Below are positions 27,899 through 28,960 of a stretch of DNA of 64,000 bases, piece after piece. A program made the position numbers and the translations under genes. The notes below the pieces were generated by a model that did no database searches, was not told the DNA's origin, and saw only the letters and a list, made by a program, of their open reading frames with translations. The stretch lies in NCBI RefSeq assembly GCF_988242995.1, contig NZ_OZ547043.1; one strand, given 5' to 3'. The first letter of the stretch is position 1. Each line of letters begins with the position of its first letter.

Positions 27899-28960
27899 AT
27901 GAGCAGAATTATCACCACCACCGTGTATACACTGAATGAGCTATCCTCCACCGCACAGGAAAAAGCCCGCGACTGGTACCGTCAGCATCATGCTGACAGC
28001 AACTGGTATGAAAACGCGTATGGGGACTTCAGGGAGGTCTGTGGCATTTTCGGGATTGACCTCCGCCAGCGTGTTATCCGGCTCAGCAACGGCAGGTTTA
28101 TGGAAGAGCCGTGCATCTGGTTCAGCGGATTCTGCAGCCAGGGGGACGGAGCCTGTTTTGAAGGACGCTGGCACTGGCAGTCAGCAACAGCCAGGAGAGT
28201 CGGGGTGTATGCCCCGCAGGACCGTGAGCTTCATCGTATCGCGGATGCCCTGCAGGCGGTGCAGAAGCGTAACTTCTGGCAACTGCAGGCTGAAATCCAC
28301 CACCGGGGACGTTACTGCCATCCGTACTGCATGGATATCACCGTCACCCGGAACAGTCCGACTGGTCAGGCTATGACAACCGATGCGGAAGCCGCAGTCA
28401 GCGAAGCCCTGCGCGACCTGGCCTTCTGGTTGTACCGTCAACAGGAAAACGAGTACGACTGGCTGACCTCAGACGCCGCTGTGGATGAGGCCTGCTCATC
28501 AACGAATTCACCTTTACCGAAGCCGGTCTGCACGCCGGCTGACCTGTCATCGTTAAACTATCATTCACCGATTTTCTGTGAGGACTTTATCGTGTCAGAC
28601 ACATTCTCCGGGACAACTCATCCCGATGACAATCACGACCGTCCCTGGTGGGGACTACCCAGCACCGTGACGCCCTGTTTCGGGGCCCGTCTGGTGCAGG
28701 AGGGTAACCGGTTGCATTACCTTGCCGACCGCGCCGGTATCAGAGGTCGGTTCAGCGATGCGGATGCGAACCATCTGGACCAGGCCTTTCCGCTGCTGAT
28801 GAAACAACTGGAACTCATGTTCACCAGCAGTGAACTGAATCCCCACCGTCAGAATACCGTCACGCTGTATGCTAAAGGGCTGACCTGCCATGCGGACACC
28901 CTCGGCAGCTGTGGTTACGTTTATCTTGCTGTTTATCCGACGCCCGAAACGAAACAGTAA
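27899..28960 (+). CDS. 353-aa ORF: unknown Cys/His-rich N-terminal region read in frame into the CbeA antitoxin domain
   Basis: No stop codon between ATG 27899 and the cbeA stop at 28960; N-terminal 231 residues have no family I recognise; C-terminal 122 residues are CbeA-like. Confidence 0.45.
   Translation: MSRIITTTVYTLNELSSTAQEKARDWYRQHHADSNWYENAYGDFREVCGIFGIDLRQRVIRLSNGRFMEEPCIWFSGFCSQGDGACFEGRWHWQSATARRVGVYAPQDRELHRIADALQAVQKRNFWQLQAEIHHRGRYCHPYCMDITVTRNSPTGQAMTTDAEAAVSEALRDLAFWLYRQQENEYDWLTSDAAVDEACSSTNSPLPKPVCTPADLSSLNYHSPIFCEDFIVSDTFSGTTHPDDNHDRPWWGLPSTVTPCFGARLVQEGNRLHYLADRAGIRGRFSDADANHLDQAFPLLMKQLELMFTSSELNPHRQNTVTLYAKGLTCHADTLGSCGYVYLAVYPTPETKQ
28592..28960 (+). CDS. cbeA: CbeA/YeeU-family type IV antitoxin (if translated independently from GTG 28592)
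   Basis: GAGGA 8 nt upstream of GTG 28592; product aligns with YeeU over its full 122-aa length (…DDNHDRPWWGLP…VTPCFGARLVQEGNRLHYLADRAGI…). Confidence 0.75.
   Translation: MSDTFSGTTHPDDNHDRPWWGLPSTVTPCFGARLVQEGNRLHYLADRAGIRGRFSDADANHLDQAFPLLMKQLELMFTSSELNPHRQNTVTLYAKGLTCHADTLGSCGYVYLAVYPTPETKQ

Follow-up and report, generated by a model that had tools for sequence, protein, structure and literature searches.

The subject of this study is a 353-codon open reading frame (ORF) on the plus strand of the window, by which we mean the whole stretch of 64,000 nucleotides (nt) from contig NZ_OZ547043.1 of the NCBI RefSeq assembly GCF_988242995.1. The ORF starts 18 nt 3' of a DUF987 gene and ends in a CbeA/YeeU-family type IV antitoxin, with a cbtA-family toxin gene following 90 nt downstream of cbeA; the operon as a whole has the order DUF932, ArdB/KlcA-type antirestriction, RadC/JAB, DUF987, DUF8835-family gene, cbeA, cbtA, DUF5983 and DUF957. 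The GTG at 28592, from which the antitoxin can begin on its own, is codon 232 of the ORF, so that the extension preceding it measures 231 codons (693 bp). A first-pass annotation made from the letters alone had reported this in-frame extension together with a separate ribosome-binding site and GTG start for the antitoxin, and both observations proved accurate. We propose that the ORF very probably represents two adjacent genes of a pheV-associated Escherichia coli genomic island, which have been joined by a single-base deletion. The relevant features, all on the plus strand, are as follows:

27899..28960, plus strand: 353-codon ORF with an ATG start, interpreted as a frameshifted DUF8835-family gene running on into cbeA
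27899..28492, plus strand: upstream-gene portion in its native frame, codons 1-198 of a protein that normally has 214 or 227 amino acids (aa)
28491..28492, plus strand: site of the 1-bp deletion, CC here against CCC in intact alleles (GAGGCCCT becoming GAGGCCT), with the frame altered from codon 199
28493..28591, plus strand: 33 out-of-frame codons (CSSTNSPLPKPVCTPADLSSLNYHSPIFCEDFI), identified by three-frame translation, an apparently accidental linker
28540-28542 and 28579-28581, plus strand: the two native TGA stops that are bypassed, both inside the out-of-frame stretch 28493..28591
28580..28584, plus strand: Shine-Dalgarno sequence GAGGA of cbeA, 7 nt before the GTG and the same in intact loci
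28592..28960, plus strand: cbeA/yeeU-family type IV antitoxin gene, 122 aa, GTG start, PF06154 match
27659..27880, plus strand: DUF987 (YeeT-like) gene, 73 aa, an ORF of the window, with PF06174 assigned in the identical locus L007 and DUF987 in RefSeq relatives
29050..29433, plus strand: intact CbtA-family toxin gene, 127 aa, an ORF of the window, with PF06755 assigned in L007 and relatives named 'TA system toxin CbtA family protein'
29430..29918, plus strand: DUF5983 (YeeW-like) gene, overlapping the cbtA stop

The downstream part of the ORF is by all measures an ordinary antitoxin gene. The sole Pfam-A match of the 353-aa product is CbeA_antitoxin at residues 249-348 (E = 3.1e-50), which spans model positions 1-100 of 101 and thus amounts to a full-length match to the PF06154 profile. 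Its own Shine-Dalgarno sequence and start codon predict a product of 122 aa, within the size range of about 105-125 aa expected for a CbeA protein, and the cognate CbtA-family toxin gene lies directly downstream. Further, the equivalent coding sequence is separately annotated as WP_001320394.1 in three strains, with 99% identity in the alignment. In the 227-aa alleles of the upstream gene the GAGGA of cbeA overlaps the TGA stop of that gene. A promoter scan of the plus strand within the 353-codon ORF found no promoter-like site, and the fold of the RNA around the cbeA start and downstream of the shift site is unremarkable (z = -0.09). As for residues 1-231, Pfam-A gave no match, the copy searched having no DUF8835 model; NCBIfam and PADLOC had none for either the ORF or the intact upstream protein, and a sequence search of the PDB returned nothing at E <= 1.

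The identity of the extension becomes apparent from comparison with other E. coli genomes. A megablast search with window positions 27600-29500 against 5426 complete E. coli genomes, in which a match had to cover at least 80% of the stretch, recovered 1806 records corresponding to 1803 of the genomes, or about one third. In the example records that we opened among these, the place is occupied by two genes, an upstream gene and then cbeA. In intact loci the former measures 684 bp (227 aa) or 645 bp (214 aa), and the GTG of cbeA lies 10 nt past the stop of the 227-aa version and 49 nt past that of the 214-aa version. Its product goes by the names "hypothetical protein", "antitoxin of toxin-antitoxin stability system" and "DUF8835 domain-containing protein"; in some recent RefSeq records the last of these is misspelt as 'DUF8835 domain-containing pootine' (L003 1800-2483, NZ_CM188749.1; L019 982-1626). 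What had been taken for an extra 690 bp is a common gene with its own annotation. Thus, homologous loci do carry a stop codon before cbeA: the upstream part corresponds to a widespread gene, annotated in its own right, whose normal end lies ahead of cbeA. This is the very finding that the first-pass annotation had named as fatal to a new fused antitoxin variant, i.e., a CbeA with a novel N-terminal domain. By contrast, its other suggestion, of a separate gene that has lost its stop, was essentially right, in that a 1-bp deletion at codon 198/199 bypasses the native stops.

The lesion itself is minimal. When the junction is aligned with three intact loci, the sole length difference is one missing C of a CCC run, and this was confirmed with further loci. 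Since the frame of cbeA is +1 relative to the upstream gene, the loss of one base joins the two in frame. Re-inserting the C restores a 214-aa protein ending in ...NEFTFTEAGLHAG, followed by the same TGA as in the common 214-aa alleles. Moreover, intact alleles have no stop in the cbeA frame over the 42 codons that precede the GTG, and therefore the loss of any one base in approximately the final 26 codons of the upstream gene would give read-through; a single mutation is expected to yield the open frame as a by-product, and it is not a designed feature. Downstream of the deletion, the differences from the intact alleles of L001 and L002 amount in the old frame to synonymous or conservative changes (CTT>CTG; TAT>TTC, Y>F; TTC>TTT; CGC>CAC, R>H), so that the new frame bears no sign of selection. 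A search of the complete E. coli genomes with the C-repaired allele gave no 100% match, and its immediate intact ancestor was not found among them. We also considered a programmed frameshift or read-through and rejected it: the site, GAG GCC TGC, has no slippery heptamer of the form X XXY YYZ, the RNA fold is the unremarkable one noted above, and relatives carry one more base and need no shift.

The consequences for the upstream protein can be gauged from its family (DUF8835/phrog_5162). Homologs fall into 3530 clusters (50% identity, E <= 0.001), nearly all of 200-225 aa, which match the query from residue 1 to about 212. The phrog_5162 match covers residues 2-197 of the window ORF (E = 1.2e-30), as against 2-211 of the intact protein. 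We judged conservation on 60 diverse members of the family, aligned with one another. N202, F206 and G210 are among the nearly invariant positions and belong to a C-terminal N-E-Y-x-F-x-E-x-G motif; the frameshift removes all three and puts 33 unrelated residues in place of the native end. A second change, CTG>CAG at 28443, substitutes Gln for Leu182 (L182Q), a position at which Leu is found in at least 90% of the 60 members. The same substitution occurs in REL606 and PCN033, and its presence at a nearly invariant site is consistent with relaxed constraint. The window copy does not extend over the full domain of about 212 aa and is a truncated, frameshifted member of the family, in other words a probable pseudogene. 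In another E. coli variant of the upstream gene (P0046, 283 aa; alignment columns 1-75), the first ~70 residues are tandemly duplicated, which is another sign that this gene is often damaged in E. coli.

The same alignment bears on the Cys/His clusters of the extension, which had been thought suggestive of metal binding. The quoted strings are present, CIWFSGFCSQGDGACFEG at residues 72-89 and HHRGRYCHPYC at residues 134-144. Among the 13 Cys/His positions, however, H141 alone is conserved (57 of the 60 members); C48, C72, C79, C86, C140 and C144 are kept in 12 to 36 of the 60, the others often having A, S, W or Y instead. A metal-binding, zinc-finger-like domain was therefore rejected, as the ligands are not conserved among the homologs.

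The junction is not private to the window. The 241 bp around it, missing C included, are 100% identical in the complete E. coli genomes listed as matches, and at an identity of at least 99% the junction is present in 79 records in all among the complete genomes. Carriers include E. coli C, PCN033 and, of the B strains, REL606, ATCC 11303 and B derivatives. In the first two and in REL606, the annotation by the Prokaryotic Genome Annotation Pipeline (PGAP) has two entries: a pseudogene, "frameshifted", for the upstream part, and WP_001320394.1, a separate YeeU-family antitoxin of 122 aa. The allele is thus already known, and RefSeq flags it as a pseudogene with a frameshift. Fourteen contigs, drawn from independent ENA, Logan and NCBI assemblies, metagenomes among them, encode exactly this 353-aa product in the same island context, and the 1062-bp DNA is identical in the seven of them that we read (L007-L013). 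Over the whole ORF, identity to complete E. coli genomes reaches a maximum of 96.9%. Up to the deletion, the window ORF and the intact gene of strain CFSAN061761 (L001 1800-2393) are the same in all but 1 of 594 nt, the one that gives L182Q; over its 3' part, 49 of 468 nt are unlike those of L001. Against REL606 and PCN033, 33 sites differ, all within 27917-28379, and from 28380 onwards the ORF is identical to PCN033 and 2 nt different from REL606. This places a recombination breakpoint within the ORF, at window positions 28379-28443, with an L001-like 5' part and a PCN033/REL606-like 3' part. On this pattern, the allele of the window is a recombinant, and the lesion is a heritable polymorphism that recombination has shuffled.

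The expectation with which the locus had been approached, namely that the DUF987 gene is followed directly by the antitoxin gene, derives from the cryptic prophages of K-12. It does hold for CP4-44, where yeeT, a 73-nt spacer and cbeA follow one another. We compared the spacer of K-12 MG1655 (NC_000913.3; L020 3042-3112) with window positions 27889-27923 and 28564-28591, and it matches two pieces of the intervening gene, the initial ~25 bp (ATGAGCAGAATTATC...) and the final ~30 bp (...GATTTTCTGTAAGGATTTTATCGTG). Since the spacer keeps both ends of the DUF8835-family gene, the K-12 arrangement is a remnant of an internal deletion, with ~640 bp lost, and not the ancestral state; the layout with the additional gene is the fuller one.

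Briefly, we envisage the following course of events. The upstream gene natively terminates 49 nt (214 aa) or 10 nt (227 aa) before the GTG of cbeA. With CCC reduced to CC at 28491-28492, the ribosome would enter the open cbeA frame at codon 199 and skip both TGA stops. Ribosomes starting at 27899 could then pass the cbeA start and yield, as a by-product, a 353-aa chimera with a damaged N-terminal domain, and the upstream gene as such would be a pseudogene. The ordinary 122-aa CbeA, initiated at 28592 from its unchanged Shine-Dalgarno sequence and GTG, probably remains the working antitoxin. By analogy with K-12, where CbeA counteracts CbtA by promoting bundle formation by FtsZ and MreB, without binding the toxin, according to the account in PMC5371832 (citing Masuda 2012), it would oppose CbtA by way of FtsZ/MreB bundling. 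Nothing that we found indicates that the chimera is needed or selected; the overall picture seems to be one of decay and not of new function.

Several points nevertheless weigh against so simple a view. The frameshift allele has been recombined onto at least two different 5' backgrounds, which speaks for long persistence; having persisted through recombination, it is evidently tolerated, and may be neutral or may even be of use. Further, which of the start codons is used is something that we infer. Finally, the same gene pair has been fused a second time. ORFs of 342/343 aa (P0031-P0045, e.g., VEE48_07310; loci L015 3001-4032, L017 111-1139 and L018 982-2013) result from a 34-bp deletion that takes out the stop and the spacer, leaving all 214 residues in frame with cbeA (...AGLRAG-LPEDFI-VSDKL...), and this junction occurs at an identity of at least 99% in 34 complete E. 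coli genomes. An independent in-frame fusion shows that the event recurs and is compatible with a functional link between both proteins.

These observations lend some color to the idea of a real, selected two-domain antitoxin, in which the chimera functions and the N-terminal domain is tethered to CbeA so as to modulate or localize it: the long ORF is intact and heritable, the 34-bp deletion has joined the same pair independently and at high identity in those 34 genomes, and in Klebsiella michiganensis (L022, L023; 5610-6996) the order DUF987, CbeA, DUF8835-family gene, CbtA places the family gene between cbeA and cbtA and suggests close linkage. We nonetheless regard it as very unlikely. The frameshift that creates the fusion destroys the conserved C-terminus of the very domain that would be tethered; the linker retains the substitution pattern of the old frame; and the junction (codons 199-231) lies outside the frame of the upstream gene, with diverse homologs standing alone. 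Fused forms are also rare, with 79 frameshift and 34 34-bp-deletion records against 1806 two-gene records in complete genomes, and the 342/343-aa ORFs form single-sequence clusters as opposed to 214-aa clusters of up to 1289 sequences. All fused ORFs that were found come from E. coli, at an identity of at least 79%, and no other fused architecture is seen among the 120 best of 2284 matches or the 150 best of 3530 cluster representatives; nearly all of the family is stand-alone. PGAP reads both fusion types as a pseudogene plus an antitoxin; on the 34-bp-deletion fusion it calls the upstream part a pseudogene 'incomplete, missing C-terminus'. The most trivial account, a sequencing or assembly error in which a homopolymer was miscalled in this window, draws on the fact that the change is one base in a short C run, and we give it practically no chance: a three-base run is atypical for such errors, the same junction occurs in the 79 complete-genome records from many laboratories and platforms, and the identical 1062-bp ORF recurs in independent metagenome, Logan and NCBI assemblies, its presence on 14 independent contigs ruling the error out.

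A different proposition, which can coexist with the pseudogene reading, is that the intact DUF8835 protein is a third partner of CbtA/CbeA, be it a regulator or a second antidote. In Enterobacteriaceae its gene is always a neighbor of the toxin-antitoxin pair, being found ahead of cbeA or else between it and cbtA; its fusion with cbeA has occurred twice independently; and database names call the protein an antitoxin. Beyond this range the association dissolves: in all four distant contexts examined the family gene has neither a CbeA nor a CbtA neighbor, ArdC or DUF2958 lie nearby, and a large AAA_34-type helicase is found close to it in three of the four, on mobile elements. Specifically, in a Mesorhizobium genome the neighbors are ArdC, DUF2958 and an AAA_34 helicase; of three metagenome contigs, two have AAA_34 helicases among the neighbors and one has ParB_N. 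The K-12 loci function as toxin-antitoxin pairs without a DUF8835-family gene, and in CP4-6 other upstream genes of the operon left toxicity unchanged (PMC5371832). A literature search under 'DUF8835' and 'antitoxin of toxin-antitoxin stability system' found no paper on the family, and the name 'antitoxin' therefore appears to come from the neighborhood only. On balance a third-partner role seems unlikely to us. That the protein is a functional CbtA/CbeA partner in Enterobacteriaceae, with the two fusions and the Klebsiella placement as 'Rosetta-stone' indications of a link, physical or functional, is likewise a doubtful proposition with a slim chance; were it true, the 353-aa chimera might retain some activity. 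The joining of two separate genes by a one-base deletion remains the reading that we prefer.

Some further observations concern the family at large. One longer protein, P0171 (374 aa), appears among the best 150 of the 3530 representatives; as a candidate for a natural fusion of the family with another domain it was discarded, there being no Pfam domain in it. The top matches listed in a Foldseek search against AFDB50 belong almost all to the same family, with uninformative annotation. At rank 14 stands A0A4P9WST2, a 'DUF4326 domain-containing protein' of 969 aa that is assigned to a chytrid fungus, Blyttiomyces helicus; it contains a full DUF8835-type domain (59% identity) and may be a bacterial contamination or a polyvalent mobile-element protein.

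To judge by the locus L007, which has the identical ORF, and by the annotation of REL606, the surroundings of the operon in the window are those of a pheV-type island: a tRNA-Phe gene (6647-6722) is followed by an integrase-sized ORF (6920-8185), and an Ag43-like autotransporter and a YeeR-like gene would lie upstream of the operon (19203-24761). Downstream of it, at 30229-30393 and 30404-31942 (minus strand) and up to ~32340, an insertion sequence (IS) of the IS66 family truncates a DUF4942 gene after 54 codons; it encodes a 512-aa transposase and a TnpB-like ORF (31991-32338), its layout is that of ISEc22 of strain PCN033, and the insertion is missing from REL606. By the same comparison, a KpsF/GutQ-type gene of the capsule region follows the IS from 33568 onward.

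In itself, the allele carries little biological weight, being a polymorphic pseudogene in an E. coli island that is well known. More generally, because K-12 has deleted the intervening gene, its prophage loci are a poor baseline for what is "normal" in CbtA/CbeA operons. Further, where a long ORF reads through an intact internal start, a frameshift artefact is likelier than a new domain architecture.

The place of the window locus among known systems can be summarized against four points of reference. With CP4-44 of K-12 it shares the order RadC, DUF987, antitoxin, toxin, a CbeA with its own Shine-Dalgarno sequence and GTG, and the DUF5983 gene after the toxin; it differs in having an upstream ORF that reads into cbeA, where K-12 keeps ~25 bp of the start and ~30 bp of the end of that gene. 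Its residues 1-198 are 96-97% identical to stand-alone proteins of 214/227 aa (e.g., WP_000086768.1), and like the stand-alone family it has the conserved SGFxSQGDGAxFEG and Y-x-H motifs; unlike that family, it is without the last 16 conserved residues (N202, F206 and G210 among them) and carries L182Q. The 342/343-aa fusion ORFs join the same two genes in the same island context, but arose by the 34-bp deletion as opposed to the 1-bp frameshift of the window. The remaining point of reference is the RefSeq pseudogenes ECB_RS14840 of REL606, DIZ83_RS19235 of E. coli C and PPECC33_RS16205 of PCN033, each described as 'antitoxin of toxin-antitoxin stability system, frameshifted': the 241-bp junction is identical and the ORF is 1062 bp long in both, whereas the 5' 480 bp of the window ORF are of another allele, with 33 differences from REL606 and PCN033, and resemble L001 instead.
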